Shown here: in pieces, positions 10,525 to 64,000 of the stretch
How the letters are laid out: every line of letters starts with the position of its first letter
Numbering within the stretch: position 1 is the first letter of the stretch
Source of the DNA: a virus
Lineage: Duplodnaviria > Heunggongvirae > Uroviricota > Caudoviricetes
DNA: 64,000 nucleotides
Reading direction: 5' to 3' (one strand)
IMG/VR virus record: IMGVR_UViG_2875697941_000001
The notes under the pieces: generated by a model
Told to the model about the DNA's origin: nothing
The model's database searches: none
What the model saw: the letters and a program-made list of their open reading frames with translations, nothing else
Made by a program: the position numbers and the translations under genes

Positions 10525-12252
10525 TTACTCAGAGTCACCGGCATCAATCGTGTCGCCGCTAATGAAGTTAAGCCCGCCTTTTTTGGCCATTGTCAGCGTT
10601 ACACGAGTGAAGTAATCAGCGCCGTTGCGTGGGTGCATATCGTTGATAGCCGAACCCCACAGCGTGGTACGGTTGACCAGCGCCGGAGTGGTCGGATGCT
10701 GGAACGGGATGGCCGGGACAGCATCACCAGTCACGAAGCCTGCTTTACCCGGATTTTCATCACGGACGTAGCACAGCACATCCATCGAGCTGAACTGAAT
10801 GTTCTCTGTCGTTAAGTTCTTACAAATACCAGCAGGTACTTCGTACACTTTCACGTTACCGAACAGGGTACCGATGTAGTGAACATACGGAGTCTGGATA
10901 TAGTCTTCGGCTGGCTGGAAGAAATCCTTCGGCAACTGTTTGAAGAAAGATGCTGCATCAGCACCAGCAAACATCCCCATCGCACCAGAAGATTTAACGC
11001 GCTCAATAATGTCGCGATATACAGTCTGGAATTTGCCACGAATGATGGTTGCCCATACATCAAAGGACTGGTTAACCGGCAGAGCGATGTCAAAGGTGTC
11101 GGTCGCAAGAGTGCGCCAGATCATGATGCGAAGACGCAGCATATCCTGTTCATGAGACAGGTATTCCTTCAGGGTGCGGAACTGTAGGGAACCCAGGTCC
11201 AGACCAAATTCACGCTGTGCTTCATACGCCGCCTGTACCGTGTGCTCAGCCGCGATAACGAACTGACTTGGGAACAGGGTGTATTTCTTCATTTCGTGGT
11301 TGATCAGCGGGATCAGCTCAGGAGCGGCTTCAATATTGATTTCCGTCTCAATTGCGATCTCAGTGCCTTTATCCGGCGCTTTGGAGAACGACAGGGCAAT
11401 CTGACCAATGTTGTAGTTCAGAGAGCAGGTAACAGTGATTTGCTCACCAGCAGCATTAGTAAACGAGTGAAGTAGGCTGCCGGAACCGTTATCAACAACA
11501 GACTTAATACGGTTAACGTAGATGTTAGTGCGACCTTTTCGGATTGGTACATTCTGGCCTTCGAAGTCTTCCATCTTGAAGGTTGCGGTTTTGCTGGTGC
11601 CATCGGAGCTTGCCACCAGCACATAGCGGCGACGTAACTGGCTGTACACACCGACGGATTGCATGTCCAGAACATCACCAGCAGCATAAGAACCAAAAGA
11701 TGAACCTGCCACGTTAAAGACTTCATAGATGTCGGACTGGTCACGCGTAACCGGAATGAAGGTACACGCATCAGCGGTAGCTGCCCCCAACTGAACAGGC
11801 AGGATCATCGCGAGGAATAAAGGCAGACGCATAACACCGTCAGAAACGCTCATCATCTCTGCTGCGACAGATTCCAGCATCGCTTTATTAGTGGCATCCA
11901 TGCTATTGCGGGTGGACTCAATCAGGCAGTTTTCCAGCGTCTGGTGGCAGGAGGCCAGAATTTCCGGACGCGGCATAGATTTATGTGCTGCGGCGTAGTC
12001 AGCCAGTGCACTTGCCCACGCTGTAGCGATTTGAGCGGTGGCATTATCAGAGATACCCACAAAAACCGGGTCTTTACGTGCAGCTTCAAGGATAGATGCG
12101 GCACGCGCGGCATCATCTTTAATGAATTGGTTATCAGTACCGAACTGCGCAGTGCTTGCCCAGCCAAGCACAGCTTTAGAGCGTTTTGCGATATCTGCAA
12201 TACGATTCTGGTATTCGCGTAAGTTACTCAATTTACTCTTCCTTAAACACAA
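10525..12252 (-). CDS. major head protein (P1 gp23-like)
   Basis: 575-aa ORF immediately downstream of parS on same strand, the position of gene 23 in P1. Confidence 0.5.
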   Translation of the reverse strand: MCLRKSKLSNLREYQNRIADIAKRSKAVLGWASTAQFGTDNQFIKDDAARAASILEAARKDPVFVGISDNATAQIATAWASALADYAAAHKSMPRPEILASCHQTLENCLIESTRNSMDATNKAMLESVAAEMMSVSDGVMRLPLFLAMILPVQLGAATADACTFIPVTRDQSDIYEVFNVAGSSFGSYAAGDVLDMQSVGVYSQLRRRYVLVASSDGTSKTATFKMEDFEGQNVPIRKGRTNIYVNRIKSVVDNGSGSLLHSFTNAAGEQITVTCSLNYNIGQIALSFSKAPDKGTEIAIETEINIEAAPELIPLINHEMKKYTLFPSQFVIAAEHTVQAAYEAQREFGLDLGSLQFRTLKEYLSHEQDMLRLRIMIWRTLATDTFDIALPVNQSFDVWATIIRGKFQTVYRDIIERVKSSGAMGMFAGADAASFFKQLPKDFFQPAEDYIQTPYVHYIGTLFGNVKVYEVPAGICKNLTTENIQFSSMDVLCYVRDENPGKAGFVTGDAVPAIPFQHPTTPALVNRTTLWGSAINDMHPRNGADYFTRVTLTMAKKGGLNFISGDTIDAGDSE

Positions 12253-12365
12253 GGCACTTGTGTGAATCCCTTTTCGGAAGAGATTTTATTGAAAGTCACT
12301 TGTTGACTTTCTCGTGACAAGCAATTTTTTTATTTTTTTCGGGAGTAGGGGAGGAAGGTAAAATC

Positions 12366-12454
12366 CAAGGTGAAATCGTGGCGATTTCACCTTGAAATTT
12401 TAGATAGATTTACTTTAAAAACAGTAGGTTAATAGTGAAATTTGAATGGCGAAA
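12366..12454 (-). other. parS: parS centromere (ParB box A heptamers ATTTCAC/ATTTCAA and box B TCGCCA flanking an AT-rich IHF-type core)
   Basis: reverse complement reads TTCGCCATTCAAATTTCACTATTAAC...AAATTTCAAGGTGAAATCGCCACGATTTCACC, matching the P1 parS organisation. Confidence 0.65.
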
Positions 12455-12456
12455 GT

Positions 12457-13458
12457 TTAAGGCTTCGGCTTTTTATCGAGGCTCTTTCTAAGGATATGCC
12501 CAATCATCCTGTCGAGTTCTTCCTGTAACTCTTTTGAGAGTCGATTAAACTCATAAGAAAATGCACGGCCTTTCACGCGCTTCCTTGCAAAGCGATCCTT
12601 GTCCTCAAATTTCCATAATTCAGTAACTACGGACTTATCTTTAGAACCTTTATCCGTGAGTAGTGAGGCTTCCTTTGTTATCAAGCGCAGGATTTTATTT
12701 TTAACTTCATCTTCGGCCATTTCTTCAATGGATAAGATGTCGTTTATTTCCGGGGATATGTTTTGAATAAGCTGATCAAACTCTAAATTCTTGTTCCCCA
12801 TTTCGTCGCCAACAGCACAAAGCGTTTTGTAGTCCGAAAAGGTTAATTCCGACTGCACAGGGAAAAGGGCGACTAATTCTTCCGGAGCACTCGCTGCCTG
12901 GAGAGCACGCGTGACCTTCGCCTGAGACAGCCCTTCTTTGGCTGCAATATCCTTCTGACTCATCCCATCATTTTTCATTCGCATCAAACGCAGACCTATT
13001 TCTCGAATGCTGTGCTGCAATGCTGTCTGAACGTCTTTCGCTAAATTTTGCGCTTCCTGAACGCTGATCTCCTGGTCCGTGACTAAAACCCGCAACCCTA
13101 CGTTCTCTAAGATGGCAGAAGCTCGACGCCGGGAACCATCCAAAATTTCAATTTTCCCTGTAGCCCGTCTAACACCTATTGCAGGGTAAAATTGCTGATG
13201 CTTAATAGTGCTTCGGATACTTTTTAATGATTTTGGCGTAAGAGATGCCTGGTCACGCCCGTTGTTATGCTGATCAACAAAGGTATCGCTTTCTACCTGG
13301 TTCGGAGGTATTACCTCTTCAATAAATGTGGCCTGGCGACCAGTTGATAACTTGAATACCTGCTCGACTCGATCGCCAGAGGCTGAAGAACTATCAAATC
13401 CGCTTAATATTGAAGGATTAAGGGTTCGCCCAATTGTTGGTCTGTTTTTCTTTGACAT
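12457..13458 (-). CDS. parB: ParB partition protein (P1 type)
   Basis: 333-aa ORF; length, order and sequence character match P1 ParB; parS immediately downstream. Confidence 0.85.
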   Translation of the reverse strand: MSKKNRPTIGRTLNPSILSGFDSSSASGDRVEQVFKLSTGRQATFIEEVIPPNQVESDTFVDQHNNGRDQASLTPKSLKSIRSTIKHQQFYPAIGVRRATGKIEILDGSRRRASAILENVGLRVLVTDQEISVQEAQNLAKDVQTALQHSIREIGLRLMRMKNDGMSQKDIAAKEGLSQAKVTRALQAASAPEELVALFPVQSELTFSDYKTLCAVGDEMGNKNLEFDQLIQNISPEINDILSIEEMAEDEVKNKILRLITKEASLLTDKGSKDKSVVTELWKFEDKDRFARKRVKGRAFSYEFNRLSKELQEELDRMIGHILRKSLDKKPKP

Positions 13459-13474
13459 GGGGGTTTCTTACTCC

Positions 13475-14671
13475 TCAGTTAGATCTGATAAATTCAATAC
13501 GGTCAAAAACTGCTTTAGCAAAATCTTCCGCGGCAATTCGCGCGTTCTTCAATGCATCAGCACTACCAACATACGTTGCCGGGTTAGCTGAAATAACAGT
13601 GTCAAAAGACTCGCCACAGCGTTCAAAACCGTCAAGGCGAGGGAGGACGACATCGAGCATATCCCCACCGAACACTTCTTTAGCCAGGCTATGGCAATAC
13701 TTATGGTCTGCCTTGTTACTCAATTTGGACATAAAACCAATGTTAGTCGCAAGCTGGCACTCGCAGCCTTCATCCGAAATGAGTTTCACCAACTCAGGAA
13801 GGCGGGCAACGTATTTAAGCGATGAGTGGAAATCAACCGTTGCAGGCGGCAGAGGTGTAAACAGTATATTGGCCGAGGCCAAAGCATTTTTCAGGAAGGC
13901 GTCAAGGTGAGGACCACTATCAACGAGGATAAAGTCATAATCGCTCTTCAGCTTATCAATCACATTTTCTTTCAGGACAGCATGGATGTTCTGACCCGGT
14001 AGATGCTCATTGCACAGCTCTCTCCAATCGGATGCAATAAAGGCATCGTCAATCGACGCAGGCATAACGTCAACCCCAGGTACAACAGAAGGAACAATAA
14101 ACTCCTCTAACAGCTCTTCACGGCTTACATTCTGCAACATAGCCTGTGCAGATGTTGCGTTTACGATACCAATAGAGTGTTTATGGCTTAAAAACATCGT
14201 TGCTGAAGATTGCGGATCAAGGTCAATAACCAGAATCCTTAAATCCTCCATAAGAAGATGAGGGTGAGCACGCATTGCATGCGCCAGAGAAACCGTCGAT
14301 ACAGTTTTTGACACACCGCCTTTAAGATTGGAGATGAAAATCACATACGCTTCGCTGTAGCGATCCCGGTATTTTGGCACTCCGCGATGTTCATATATGT
14401 CAATGATGTTCTGAATTGACATCGCATATTTCATTGAAGAGCCAGCAGGGCGTTTATCGAAAACATAACCCTTTTCTTCCATTTCACTTACGGCATAGTC
14501 AACGTTCGCTCGAGTCAGTAGAGGCAATTTTGCCAGTGCCGCTTTCGCATAGACCTGGTAAAACTCGTTCGCGTGTAGCTCATCCTTTTGCAACTGTACT
14601 TGTTCAGTCAGAACATTGAGCATTCTGTTTGCTCTTTGAGCAACCTTGTGAAGCTGGCTGGAATCACTCAT
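13475..14671 (-). CDS. parA: ParA partition ATPase (P1 type, with N-terminal DNA-binding extension)
   Basis: 398-aa ORF; deviant Walker A KGGVSKT; upstream of parB. Confidence 0.85.
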   Translation of the reverse strand: MSDSSQLHKVAQRANRMLNVLTEQVQLQKDELHANEFYQVYAKAALAKLPLLTRANVDYAVSEMEEKGYVFDKRPAGSSMKYAMSIQNIIDIYEHRGVPKYRDRYSEAYVIFISNLKGGVSKTVSTVSLAHAMRAHPHLLMEDLRILVIDLDPQSSATMFLSHKHSIGIVNATSAQAMLQNVSREELLEEFIVPSVVPGVDVMPASIDDAFIASDWRELCNEHLPGQNIHAVLKENVIDKLKSDYDFILVDSGPHLDAFLKNALASANILFTPLPPATVDFHSSLKYVARLPELVKLISDEGCECQLATNIGFMSKLSNKADHKYCHSLAKEVFGGDMLDVVLPRLDGFERCGESFDTVISANPATYVGSADALKNARIAAEDFAKAVFDRIEFIRSN

Positions 14672-14812
14672 CGAAAGTCATCCTTTATGCTGTATTTTTG
14701 AATTTACTTAAAAATGCTGCATAAAATAATAATGTATGCACAGATGCTTGTACATAGCATTCTCTGCATGTTTGGTTCATTTTGCACGATTGAGAGTTAC
14801 AAGGAGGACACA

Positions 14813-14833
14813 AAAAAGCCCCGTTCAGGGGCA
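14813..14833 (-). terminator. rho-independent terminator of the GIY-YIG-like gene
   Basis: minus strand reads GCCCCTGAACGGGGC followed by TTTTTT, 7 nt after the ORF stop. Confidence 0.55.
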
Positions 14834-14839
14834 TCAGTG

Positions 14840-15649
14840 TTATTTGCTAAGAGCAGCGAATAATCGTTCGAAATCGATAGTATCTATAGCACGCGTAAGC
14901 GCCGGAAGTTCAGCCTCAAAGTACCCGTGTCGATCGTAAAAGAAGGGACCGAAGAGCGAGGCATGTTGGATTCTACTTCGCCCCAGCCCGGACACACAGT
15001 TAAGCCCATTACCGGCTAAAAGGCTAAAAAACTTCTCTGGATTATCGTGGTAAAGCTGGGAATCAATGGTGGCGGTTAACTCTTCCATAGGGAAGCACAC
15101 CCGCCTTGTCTCCCAGGGATATTTAGTCCGAAGCATAAACATTGCTTTCAGCAATTCACATTGAGCGCGGATCGCGTCCGGTTCATAGCCAGATATGGAG
15201 ACATAAGCCATGTCCCTCATTCCTGCGTCATCTTTGAAAGTCACGATAGAAGTAACATCCAGCTCTTTTTCGAAAGAGCGAGCAGCATCTACTGGACGCT
15301 GAAGTAAATCATTCGACTTAATGCGCTCGAGAATCCCTCCCCACATATCATTTAGATATTCGATATGAGCCAAAACCTTATCAAGACACTCTCGTGTAAA
15401 CCATTCAGTATGCCCGCCACCGGCGCTTTTCTCCCACGGCGCATTCCAGGGGAAAAAGGTTGCGTGTAAAGCCCGCTCAAGATTAACTATTGCCAATCGC
15501 GTACCACGATAGACCCGTGAAAGCGCAAAATCGGGACTCACTTGTAGCCCTTTAAACCGTGCCAATGGACCACATGAAATGCCGATTTTAAAAGTATCTC
15601 CATTCTCCGGCACCAGAACGTAGAGGTAGTGTTGTTTCTCTTCTTGCAT
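14840..15649 (-). CDS. GIY-YIG / T5orf172-like domain protein with uncharacterised C-terminal domain
   Basis: 269-aa ORF; N-terminus HYLYVLVPENGDTFKIGIS...R...E pattern typical of GIY-YIG-like nucleases; located between incA iterons and parA. Confidence 0.55.
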   Translation of the reverse strand: MQEEKQHYLYVLVPENGDTFKIGISCGPLARFKGLQVSPDFALSRVYRGTRLAIVNLERALHATFFPWNAPWEKSAGGGHTEWFTRECLDKVLAHIEYLNDMWGGILERIKSNDLLQRPVDAARSFEKELDVTSIVTFKDDAGMRDMAYVSISGYEPDAIRAQCELLKAMFMLRTKYPWETRRVCFPMEELTATIDSQLYHDNPEKFFSLLAGNGLNCVSGLGRSRIQHASLFGPFFYDRHGYFEAELPALTRAIDTIDFERLFAALSK

Positions 15650-26994: not shown

Positions 26995-29900
26995 TCAACG
27001 AATACTGATGCCGGAAGCGGCTTTTTTGGTCACAATCACCGTACAGTCGGTGATATTGCCTGCCCCCTGATTGCCTTTCTGGAAAATCTTAAACTCCAGA
27101 GTGACGCTTCCCCTGCCACTCGGCATATCAATAACTGCACTGTAACTACCGGGAATGGCCCCTTTAGTTTCTCTGGATGCGATTAATACGCCGTTTTTGC
27201 GAACTTCAAAACCATAACCCGTGTATCGCGTGCCTCCTGGGTTATTTCCGCTCCCCGGATCGTCATACGCTATACCGTTAAAAATAATGGGCGGAATAAT
27301 AATCTGGCGGTCAAAGTTATGATCATCGCTGATGGTGACTGTAACCGTACCGTTTGGTGTTTCCGTGTTACCCCACGTACCGACTTTTTTCGGGAAGGCT
27401 TTTGATACAGCTTTAACGAAATCTCCTCTGACCTGGGTCGCCTCCAGCATGCCCTTAATCGTACAGTTCTGGTTAATCGTGACATTGTTGAGCGTTCCTG
27501 AGTTCGCATTCACACTGCCACTGATATCCGCATTTTTCGCCGTCAGTCTCCCGTCTGATGTCAGGGAAAATGCCGGAGGATTACCGCCGCTGGTAATGGT
27601 GGGGGCCGTCAGGCGTTTCAGGAACACTTCATTCATGAATATCTGATCGCCCTGACCAACAAACATCGGCTTTGTGTTGCCATTCGCAGGATTAATCATC
27701 GCAATCCTGTCTGCTGCCAGCAGCACCTGACTCTGCATGCCGTCAGGGGTGTTCTCAATACCGGCACCGATACCCGCAATATAAAGGCGTCCGTCCTGCA
27801 TCTGCTGCAGCTTCACTGCCCACATGCTGTTCAGGTTATTATTTGTATCAACCTGAACCTTCTGTATCTGCTGGATCGCTGCACTCTGGTCTTCCAGTTT
27901 CTTATTGACGGTCTGTGTTATTTCATTGCTGACATCCGTTATGGACGTCCTGATTTCAGTCAGGTCAGGCGCAAGCTGACCGTTATCAATCTGCGTCCAC
28001 AGCTCCTGAGCCAGATGGGTTTTCCCTATCTCGCCTTTGAAAAAATCCAGATAGCCTGATGCATCATCACTCGGCTGACCGACAGCCTCCACGAATGCCG
28101 ATTTGCCAACGGTGTTCACACTGCGAACGTAAAAATAATAATCATGGCCCGGTTTGATATTGATACTGGCGGCTATCCAGTACAGTGCCGTACCAAGATA
28201 ACGCGCGCTGGTTTCAACCTGCCTGATATCCGCAATCCGTTTTTCCGAGAACCAGAACTCAAACTGTACCGTCGGGTCATAAACCGCAAGATGCGGCGTG
28301 GCGGTTATCTGAAAATAGCCCGGTGTCAGCTCAATCCGCGACGGCGCTGCCGGTGCGGCAATCCGGAACGATACCGATGCCGGATCGCCCTGCTGTCCCC
28401 ACGCATTTACCGCCCGGACTGTCAGCCTGTAGTTCCCCAACGCCAGTTGTGTGAAGCGGTATGTGGTTTCCGTCGTCCGGGCCGTGCTGACCAGCCGCTC
28501 ACTGCCGTCGTCCGCTGTTACGGTCAGACGGAGCAGGAAGCTCACGCCCTTCACCACCTTCGGTGTGTCCCAGCGCGCCAGCACCTGATATTCCCCGCTG
28601 TCTGCGGTGACTTCGGCAGTCAGGTGCTGCACCGCTGGCGGCGTGACACCATTCACCGTGCCGCTCTGGTCGCCGTCAAAGTGCGCCCCGTTATCCACGA
28701 TGGCCTCTTTTTCCGGCACATGCTGCACGGCGGTGATGGCATACGTGCCGTCGTCGTTCTCACGGATACTCACGCAGCGGAACAGTCGCTGGCGCAGCGT
28801 CGGCTGCTTCAGCCCCCACACGCTGTATCCGGCAACGCCGTCAGGAACACGGCTCACTTTTACCTTCACGCCGTCGGTGACGGACTGGACCTCCACGCTG
28901 ACCGGATTGCCACTTCCGTCAACCAGGCTTATCAGCGTGGTACCGGAGGATGGCAGCGTGATTTCACGGTCGAGCGTCAGCGTCCGGGTCTGGCTGTTCA
29001 CCGCCAGCACGCGCCCGCCGATGCTGATACCCGCATAGTCATCATCGCAGATTTCAATGACATCCCCCGGTACATGGCGAAGCCCTTCCGCACCCACGCT
29101 GAAGTCCACGGTCTGCGTTTCCAGCAGTTCCGTTTTAATCAGCCACAGCCCGGCGCGGTGCGCCTGCCCCCGGCTGGTACAGCCAAAGGCATCCATCTTC
29201 GTGACGTTACGACCGTAACGGGCAATGGCCTGCGTATCTTCAACAAGCTCTGTCGCCGTCTCCCAGCCGTTGTTCGGGTCAATCCAGTTCACCTCAACGG
29301 CATTATGGCGGTCCTTCAGGGCGCTGAAGCTGTAGCGGAACGGCGCGCCATCATCCGGCATCACCACATTACTGCGGTTATAGGTCCACACCTTATCCGA
29401 CGGTCGGTCCTGCACGAACGTCAGCGCTGTGTGGTCAGGTACGCATTACAGGTGATGCGCGGCTCCGTGCCGCCAAAGCCGTCCGGCACTGACTGGTCGC
29501 AGTACTGGCCGATGACATACAGCGCCCATTTGTCCACATCCGCCGCACCAAGACGTTTCCCCATGCCGTAGCGCGGGTGGGTCAGCATATCCCACAGACA
29601 CCAGGCCGGGTTGTTGCTGTATGCCGGCTTAAACGTTCCGTCCCAGATACCGCTGTATTGCCGCGTCTGCGGGTTATAGTTCGACGGCACCTGCAGAATG
29701 CGCCCGCGAAGATGATAATTACGGCTCACCTGCTGGCTGCCGAACTGCTCCGAGTCCACCTGCACGCCGACCAGTGCCGTGTTCGGGTAGCACTGTTTCA
29801 CATCGATGATTTCGGTGTATGACGACCAGAGCGTTTTGTTCTGCAGCTGGTCTGTGGTGCTGTCCGGCGTCATCCTGCGCATCCGGATATTAAACGGGCG

Positions 29901-30558
29901 CGGCGGCAGGCTACCCACCACCACCGAGGCCAGATACTGCGAGGTGGTTTTGCCCTTAATGGTGATGTCTTTTTCCGTCACCCAGCCACCATTACGCTGT
30001 ATCTGAACCAGCAGGCGGACTTCCGACGGATTCCGGTCCCCCTTTGAGGTGGTTTCCACCAGTGCCTGCACACCGAAGGTAAAGCGCAGACGGTCGATGT
30101 TTGCCTTTTTCCGTCACCCAGCCACCATTACGCTGTATCTGAACCAGCAGGCGGACTTCCGACGGATTCCGGTCCCCCTTTGAGGTGGTTTCCACCAGTG
30201 CCTGCACACCGAAGGTAAAGCGCAGACGGTCGATGTTTGCCGACGTGATGGTCCGGGTAATCGGCGTGTCGTACTTCACTTCCGTACCCAGCACCGTCTC
30301 GGAGCCGGAGGATTCAAATCCCTCCGGCGGTGTCTGCTCCTGCTCACCGGCCCGGAACACCACCGTGACGCCGGAGATGTTGGTATTCCCCTCACTGTCC
30401 AGCACTGGCGTACTGTTCAGCAGCACGCTTTTTAATCCATCCACCGGACCTTCAATCGGCCCTTCGCTGATGGCATCGATCACACTCAGCAACTGCGTGG
30501 ACTTCAGGTTGTCCTTCGCTTCGCGCGGAGTATGCCCCTTACTGCTGCCTTTACCCAT
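26995..30558 (-). pseudogene. J: tail tip/host specificity protein J, disrupted in this assembly (136-bp tandem duplication and ~70-bp deletion)
   Basis: three consecutive ORFs (188, 216, 806 aa) all matching lambda J; duplicated block 29970..30105 = 30106..30241; stop/frame change at 29416..29423 where about 25 codons of J are missing. Confidence 0.8.
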
Positions 30559-30617
30559 TCCTCACGCTCCATAAACGACAAAACCGCCCGGAGGCGGTTT
30601 CACATAAACGTTTTTCA

Positions 30618-31289
30618 TCAGCGACCAATCACCACAACCTGACCACCATCCCCTTCGTCTGCCGTGCTGATCTCCTGAGAAACCACGCGAGACCCCACGC
30701 GCATTTCCCCGTACAGAACAGGCAGAACATTGCCCTGGGCAACCATGTTATCCAGTGAGGAGAAATAGGTGTTCTGCTTACCGTTATCCGTTGTCTGTGT
30801 ACGGGGAGTTCTGGCTTTCGGTGCCAGCATCTGCGCCACACCACCGAGCACCATACTGGCACCGAGAGAAAACAGGATGCCGGTCATACCACCGGCCCCA
30901 ATGGCTGCCCCCCATGCTGCAAGGGTGGCTCCGGCAGTAAAGAATGATCCGGCAATGGCGGCAGCCCCCAGAACAATCTGGAATACGCCCCCTGACTTGG
31001 CCCCGGCGACTCTGGGAACAATATGAATCACAGCGCCGTCAGGCAGAGTCTCATGTAACTGCGCCGTTAACCCGGACGTGCTGACGTCCCGCCCGGCAAT
31101 CCGTACCTGATACCAGCCGTCGCTCAGTTTCTGACGAAACGCCGGGAGCTGTGTGGCCAGTGCGCGGATGGCTTCAGCCCCCGTTTTCACACGAAGGTCG
31201 ATGCGGCGGCCAAATCGTTGCAAATCCCCGTAAAGGCAGATGCGTGCCATTCCCGGTGACGCCAGAGGGAGTGTGTGCGTCGCTGCCAT
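30618..31289 (-). CDS. I: tail assembly protein I
   Basis: 223-aa ORF MAATHTLPLASPGMARICLYG matches lambda I. Confidence 0.9.
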   Translation of the reverse strand: MAATHTLPLASPGMARICLYGDLQRFGRRIDLRVKTGAEAIRALATQLPAFRQKLSDGWYQVRIAGRDVSTSGLTAQLHETLPDGAVIHIVPRVAGAKSGGVFQIVLGAAAIAGSFFTAGATLAAWGAAIGAGGMTGILFSLGASMVLGGVAQMLAPKARTPRTQTTDNGKQNTYFSSLDNMVAQGNVLPVLYGEMRVGSRVVSQEISTADEGDGGQVVVIGR

Positions 31290-32072
31290 TTGTCGGTGTA
31301 CCTCTCTCGTTTGCTCAGTTGTTCAGGAATATGGTGCAGCAGCTCGCTGTCACCACAGTAAATGGCGGCATGATTCGGCACCGATGAACCNNNNNNNNNN
31401 NNNNNNNNNNNGTCGCTGCCATTTGTCGGTGTACCTCTCTCGTTTGCTCAGTTGTTCAGGAATATGGTGCAGCAGCTCGCTGTCACCACAGTAAATGGCG
31501 GCATGATTCGGCACCGATGAACCAAAACAGCACAGCAGCACATCGCCCGGTTGTGCTGATGACAACGGCACCTGATACAGCCCTGTGGCCTCCAGATTAT
31601 CCAGATAGAGATTCTGACCGTGACGCCACCAGTCATCCTCGCGATGAAAATCCGGCATCTCAATCCCCGCCAGATGGTAAGCATCCCGGAACAGCGTGTA
31701 ACAGTCCGTCACCCCGTGCTCAAAGCGCCGCCCGGAAAGATGTGGCACACAGCGGAACTTGTGAATCGCCCCCCGGCAAACCAGCCACCACGGCAAATCA
31801 CTCTGCACCTGCAGCCGCCGGTCGGTCTCACTCAGCCAGGGCAGACCACCGGGGTGGCTGTGGACCAGCGCCACAATCTCACCCTGCATCTCTGCCCGCA
31901 GCCAGTCCTCCGGCGACATCCGGAAATACGCCTCCGGCTCACCGGAGATATTCACGCAGGGAAAATATCTTTCCCCCTCCGGTGTTCTCACCACGAAGCC
32001 GCACGACTCCGCTGGCGCACATCGCCGGGCGTGCGCCAGAATCGCTGATTCTGTCTCTGTCATGGGATTCAC
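31187..32072 (-). CDS. K: tail assembly protein K, interrupted by assembly gap
   Basis: N-terminus MNPMTETESAILAHARRC matches lambda K; ORF crosses N-run; removing gap plus one duplicate copy gives an intact 250-codon frame. Confidence 0.8.
31391..31411. other. assembly gap (21 N) flanked by an unmerged 112-bp direct duplication (31279..31390 and 31412..31523)
   Basis: N characters in sequence; identical flanks read directly. Confidence 0.95.
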
Positions 32073-62981: not shown

Positions 62982-64000
62982 AAAAGCTAGGGGATTTACC
63001 TGATGTCACTTTTGAAGAGGCCTGCCTAAGATGGCTTGAGGAAAAAGCTGATAAAAAATCTCTCGATTCAGATAAAAGCCGGATTGAGTTCTGGCTTGAA
63101 CATTTTGAGGGTATAAGGCTTAAAGATATCTCGGAGGCAAAGATTTACTCTGCTGTAAGCAGAATGCATAACAGAAAGACGAAAGAAATATGGAAACAGA
63201 AAGTTCAGGCCGCCATCAGGAAAGGTAAAGAACCGCCTGTTTATGAACCAAAGCCAGTATCAACTCAGACAAAGGCAAAGCATCTTGCCATGATAAAGGC
63301 CATTCTCCGTGCTGCAGAACGCGACTGGAAGTGGCTGGAAAAAGCGCCTGTCATCAAGATACCAGCGGTCAGAAACAAGCGAGTCAGATGGCTGGAAAAG
63401 GAGGAAGCAAAACGCCTTATTGATGAGTGCCCCGAACCACTGAAATCTGTCGTCAAGTTTGCGCTGGCAACTGGTCTGAGAAAGTCGAACATCATAAATC
63501 TGGAATGGCAACAAATCGACATGCAGCGACGAGTTGCCTGGGTGAATCCAGAAGAGAGCAAATCAAACCGCGCCATTGGTGTGGCGCTGAACGATACCGC
63601 CTGTAAAGTGTTGCGTGATCAAATAGGCAAGCATCACAAATGGGTGTTTGTACATACCAAGGCGGCTAAGCGAGCAGATGGAACATCAACGCCTGCGGTC
63701 AGGAAGATGCGCATCGACAGCAAGACATCATGGCTATCAGCTTGTCGTCGTGCAGGAATTGAAGATTTCCGTTTCCATGACCTCAGACACACCTGGGCAA
63801 GCTGGCTGATTCAGTCAGGCGTCCCATTATCAGTGCTTCAGGAAATGGGCGGATGGGAGTCCATAGAAATGGTTCGTAGGTATGCTCACCTTGCGCCTAA
63901 TCATTTGACAGAGCATGCGAGGAAAATAGACGACATTTTTGGTGATAATGTCCCAAATATGTCCCACTCTGGAATTATGGAGGATATAAAGAAGGCGTAA
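62837..64000 (+). CDS. int: tyrosine integrase (lambdoid, DLP12 IntD-like)
   Basis: 387-aa [50 protein letters not shown]; C-terminal [10 protein letters not shown]...RYAHL catalytic motifs; stop at window end. Confidence 0.9.

Follow-up and report, generated by a model that had tools for sequence, protein, structure and literature searches.

Interruptions of the host-specificity gene J in an Escherichia coli prophage record most probably mark seams between concatenated contigs

Does a lambdoid prophage of Escherichia coli carry a host-specificity gene that has been broken twice, once by a tandem duplication and once by a deletion, or do the two lesions belong to the deposited record rather than to the organism? 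The question is raised by a stretch of 64,000 nt, hereafter the window, which corresponds to positions ~93,922-157,921 of GenBank CP035322.1, a 5.05-Mb "chromosome". Window positions 10623-32746 match CP035322.1:104544-126667 at 100% over 22,124 nt, a run of 21 N included. The record was absent from the RefSeq set of complete E. coli genomes that we used. An initial annotation had described J as broken and had offered two readings of the damage, a defective tail tip or an artefact of assembly.

The gene and the ORFs into which it is split in the record are as follows.

26995-30558, minus strand: lambda-type tail tip/host-specificity gene J, 3564 nt, identical block by block (100%) to gpJ of E. 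coli MB49
29992-30558: first ORF of the split gene, 188 aa
29421-30071: second ORF, 216 aa
26995-29415: third ORF, 806 aa

The earlier identification of this gene as a lambda-type J was borne out by nucleotide identity, which is 98-100% to annotated gpJ genes in thousands of E. coli genomes, and by its set of Pfam gpJ domains. Over the three fragments, FNIII-A_GpJ, Phage-tail_3, Ig_J, Ig_J_second, Phage_Tail_Tip and Ig_GpJ_C all scored above the cut-off, and the same six domains are present in the intact MB49 protein (1165 aa, annotated intact at positions 11681-15178 of the MB49 chromosome locus, L002). Within the tail module K and I precede J, which is followed by lom and the side tail fibre gene. 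The whole gene order (tape measure, M, L, K, I, J, lom, then the side tail fibre and tail fibre assembly genes) is that of the gpJ-bearing lambdoid prophages of E. coli. Unlike in those prophages, the frame in the record is interrupted by a gain of 136 nt and a loss of 70 nt, and the single open frame of about 1130-1165 codons that is found in MB49 and in nine of ten independent contigs is absent. The three J fragments, and a tail fibre/assembly fusion protein encoded nearby, were looked up by exact match and none is on record; this negative is uninformative, since the source record (L017) lists no J or side tail fibre gene.

When the gene was read from its native ATG at 30558, 1188 codons were obtained with eight internal stops, at codons 189-371. 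All eight in-frame stops fall between the duplication and deletion junctions, and beyond these the original frame resumes. The initial annotation had placed a stop at 29421-29423, where TGA is indeed read on the minus strand, and had correctly stated that the frame is restored overall (+136 - 70 = +66 nt). It had also called this restoration odd, a description that we do not share, since the outcome has a one-in-three chance. The restoration is without functional effect because eight stops separate the junctions, and selection behind it was rejected as an explanation on the same ground.

The gain of sequence in J is a perfect repeat. Window 29969-30105 and 30105-30241 are identical at a period of 136, with 100% matches over 273 nt, which two repeat finders and a direct count resolved into two 136-nt copies plus one shared C.

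29970-30105, minus strand: repeat copy 1, J nt 318-453 (aa 106-151), within the FNIII-A domain; right-hand end of a 682-nt block
30106-30241, minus strand: repeat copy 2, forming the left end of the adjoining block (window 30105-31390)

The two copies had previously been reported as identical direct repeats, and the match between them is exact at 136 of 136 positions. In MB49 (L002 14725-14861) and in NZ_AP022120.1 (L001) the 136-nt segment is single-copy. A perfect tandem repeat of this length cannot have arisen by chance.

The loss of sequence was delimited against the intact gpJ of NZ_AP022120.1. From 30105 down to 29424 the window equals L001 6260-6941 at 100%, and the match resumes 70 nt further on.

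29424-29426, minus strand: junction of the 70-nt loss, with a 3-nt microhomology (CGC); approximately J nt 1000-1069 absent (aa ~334-357, at the start of the Phage-tail_3 domain)
29424-30105, no strand assigned: 682-nt block, equal to L002 14180-14861 of MB49 by exact-match extension and likewise 100% identical to L001

A deletion of ~70 bp had been described here, with the missing codons replaced by 5 nt. Exactly 70 nt are gone, and the deletion is clean, the 5 nt being an effect of reading in frame. One 682-nt block is thus bounded by the two J lesions, and we regard this block as a putative small contig.

We then compared the whole window with MB49, a finished E. coli genome, by aligning its plasmid pYLMB49b and its chromosome locus L002 to the window and extending the exact matches. 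All 64 kb are covered by six exact MB49 blocks, with zero substitutions in 63,979 called bases.

1-22850: plasmid pYLMB49b (P1-like phage-plasmid)
22850-23525: L002 7321-7996
23525-29426: L002 8211-14112
29424-30105: L002 14180-14861
30105-31390: L002 14725-16010
31391-31411: 21 N
31412-64000: L002 15899-48487 (MB49 chromosome, lambdoid prophage)

The window ends, at 63998-64000, on the TAA stop of the integrase gene intD (L002 48487), just before the argU tRNA, which is either a coincidence or a reflection of how the window was cut. The sole differences from MB49 are five structural seams, namely a plasmid-prophage joint, a loss of 215 nt, the 70-nt loss, the 136-nt duplication and a gap of 21 N with a 112-nt repeat. 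All five lie within 22850-31523 (8.7 kb), and the other 55 kb are without seams. Microhomologies at the junctions amount to 1, 1, 3 and 1 nt, as expected for arbitrary ends. A search of the prophage and plasmid loci of MB49 for repeats turned up none at the break points. Block ends also showed no consistent coincidence with SNP or repeat boundaries among 11 J alleles (that of L001 and ten others). Single coincidences did occur at 14180 and 14861 in some alleles; since SNPs occur inside the blocks as well, the position of block ends at SNP boundaries was rejected as evidence.

Two further seams lie outside J, one on either side of it.

31391-31411: run of 21 N in tail gene K (C40/NlpC-P60 peptidase), between the two copies (31279-31390 and 31412-31523) of a perfect 112-nt direct repeat
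23525: junction of the 215-nt loss, L002 7997-8211 absent; side tail fibre and tail fibre assembly genes fused in frame

The N gap lies ~1.1 kb from the J duplication, and its 112-nt repeat is single-copy in MB49 (L002 15899-16010) and in L001. Two readings of it, a scaffold gap at which overlapping contigs were left unmerged and a 133-nt tandem duplication with 21 nt masked, lead to the same verdict of an artefact. Through the 215-nt loss the side tail fibre gene lacks its end and the tail fibre assembly gene its start, and a fused ORF of 1108 aa results (22940-26266, minus strand); this fusion is probably one more seam. A 132-nt repeat (44 aa, in frame) runs for about 2.3 copies, at 92% identity, through 24564-24868 in the side tail fibre gene. 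This repeat is natural and no artefact, because MB49 carries it too.

The remaining seam joins plasmid DNA to the prophage.

22702-22850 (148-149 nt): inside end of IS10/ISVsa5, which closes the 22.85-kb P1-like block and butts on prophage DNA at 22849/22850

With the inside-end inverted repeat of IS10 at window 22702-22721, the join sits 148 nt inside the IS10 end, away from the terminus of the element. The source of the window was traced through a Dam methylase allele that ends inside the IS10 insertion (window 20623-22746). An exact look-up of this allele returned four contigs only: the plasmid of MB49 and three "chromosomes" of 5 Mb, CP035320.1, CP035321.1 and CP035322.1. The plasmid block breaks off at one and the same base (...CTGTTGAGAG) in each of these "chromosomes". 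What follows this shared end is the prophage in CP035322.1 and two different, unrelated blocks in CP035320.1 and CP035321.1. In CP035320.1 (L014 12228-20742), the P1-like block is followed by an omptin gene, an epimerase-family gene, Mig-14 and a Rep3 replication protein, and we take the omptin, Mig-14 and Rep3 genes to be of a usually plasmid-borne kind. A break 148 nt within an IS element that three assemblies have in common, with other neighbours in each, has the look of a contig end and is unlike a product of transposition or recombination. The three records are best read as concatenations of contigs, with which the absence of CP035322.1 from the RefSeq complete genomes is consistent. In CP035321.1 (L016 12377-12494), just past the plasmid block, 11 N were observed at nine positions (seven single and two pairs), which indicates a low-quality consensus there.

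Colicins of the types reported for BR02-DEC and BR10-DEC are typically plasmid-borne. Two papers that cite these strains place the genes elsewhere, which also fits concatenation: colicins M and V are given under CP035320 (BR02-DEC) and placed in the "genome" (PMC6723558), and colicin genes are likewise placed in the "genome" of BR10-DEC (bioRxiv 10.1101/2021.05.15.444200). The plasmid-type block in the CP035320.1 "chromosome" would account for the placement of colicins M and V in PMC6723558. A literature search on the assembly method of the BRxx-DEC strains found no genome announcement or paper on these assemblies.

Taking the seams together, we put a probability of about 0.9 on the J lesions being an artefact of assembly or scaffolding, that is, seams of a pseudo-chromosome in which short-read contigs were placed end to end. 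What the sequences show is a mosaic of blocks identical to MB49, a plasmid join that is not biological, and sibling records with the same plasmid end; that software and not the cell did the joining, and what type of pipeline was used, we infer. Among the known artefacts of joining, an unmerged contig overlap mimics a tandem duplication, a dropped short contig mimics a deletion, and an N gap may have duplicated flanks. The window resembles scaffold or pseudomolecule artefacts of this sort in that its perfect duplicates fall exactly on block ends, its N run has a copy of a 112-nt repeat on both sides, its missing stretches are below the usual contig-length cut-offs, and its chimeric plasmid/chromosome joint varies among siblings. 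It differs from them in that the overlap lengths vary instead of showing one constant k. The overlaps of 136/137 nt and 112 nt and the IS10 overhang of 148 nt are unequal, with no constant k-mer length, which speaks against concatenation to the extent that plain overlap of de Bruijn contigs fails as an explanation.

This irregularity bears on a different mechanism that would still leave the lesions artefactual, in which a finishing, gap-closing or polishing step misfilled gaps in the repeated region. Such a step would fit the uneven sizes of the overlaps and gaps (136, 112, 70 and 215 nt) and the one gap left as 21 N, and the scattered single N in the sibling L016 suggest consensus editing. 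The butt joints of the plasmid in three siblings nevertheless point to plain concatenation, and we consider misfilling by a finishing step highly improbable.

Concatenation would also explain why the seams cluster in the tail region. Short-read assemblies fragment in multi-copy regions, and in E. coli the tail module is one of these, with 15,142 matches in 4,508 genomes and a median of 3 per genome. Two chromosomal sites, DLP12 and Qin, encode the identical tail fibre assembly protein; a second J copy of MB49 was sought at the Qin site, where there is no prophage. In such a region, the tail genes may have been assembled as pieces of 676, 5902, 682 and 1286 nt, which would then have been ordered collinearly and concatenated, mostly with no spacer and once with 21 N. 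Overlaps between neighbours (136/137 nt and 112 nt) would appear twice, giving the "tandem duplication" of J and the K repeat across the N gap. Short stretches that were left unassembled or discarded would leave 70 nt missing in J and 215 nt missing at the tail fibre/assembly border.

If the lesions were carried by the organism, their junctions might be expected to recur in related genomes. Searches with 120-nt probes centred on each J junction (E<=1e-35) found no full-length match to either among 5,426 complete E. coli genomes, and the halves of each probe separately match thousands of genomes. As an exact pattern, the duplication junction had zero matches in genome_contigs (species-representative genomes), viral_contigs and metagenome_contigs, and the deletion junction had zero matches in genome_contigs, the one contig collection scanned for it. 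Among ten independent contigs encoding the identical tape-measure protein, neither J junction was present in any, and a full-length J was called in nine. Of ten contigs chosen because their tail fibre assembly protein is identical, nine likewise have a full-length J.

The tenth of these assembly-protein contigs (L021 8955-10001, GCA_045572895.1), a prophage at the DLP12 site, carries a large deletion that joins the N-terminus of the terminase large subunit to the C-terminus of the tail fibre, a quite different structure from that in the window. We regard this deletion as genuine, and as an example of real prophage decay.

Decay of this sort is the basis of the remaining explanation, in which replication slippage or illegitimate recombination produced both the 136-bp duplication and the 70-bp deletion in the strain itself, and the prophage is tail-defective and cryptic. 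The lesions are present in a deposited record, whose CP accession implies that it was submitted as complete, and this counts against an artefact. Prophage decay by indels is well known, duplications and deletions poor in microhomology occur naturally, the 3-nt microhomology at the deletion is compatible with slippage, and one related prophage, L021, has a genuine large deletion. With the cryptic lambdoid prophages at the argU/DLP12 site, whose tail genes have decayed, the present prophage shares its integration site and neighbours (intD, argU tRNA and the ompT and envY side), as seen in MB49, and relatives such as L021 show true decay. It differs from them in being complete elsewhere, in matching an intact copy without a difference there, and in showing apparent decay only at the block seams. 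Four independent indels and a plasmid insertion would be needed within 8.7 kb, yet there are zero substitutions in 64 kb relative to MB49; the J lesions form the ends of one 682-nt block; neighbouring joins can be shown to be non-biological; and the lesions are common to no other genome searched. We therefore hold real lesions to be unlikely. In the boldest form of this view, both J lesions would be very recent mutations that, with those in K and the side tail fibre gene, have only now put the tail of a prophage intact in all else out of action in this isolate, a scenario to which we give little credence.

Of the two readings in the initial annotation, an assembly artefact is thus favoured by the identity to MB49, the 682-nt block, the seams and the sibling records, and a defective tail tip is unlikely. 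Its statement that J is broken is true of the record and probably untrue of the organism, for the real prophage most likely has an intact J of 1165 aa like its MB49 counterpart.

For the J protein, this analysis holds no new biology and nothing novel. What follows from concatenation is a warning about data quality only: CP035320.1, CP035321.1 and CP035322.1 are labelled as chromosomes and hold plasmid contigs together with unmerged or missing contig ends, and any call of a pseudogene, a "tandem duplication", a "chromosomal" colicin or plasmid gene, or of prophage completeness that is based on these records may be spurious.
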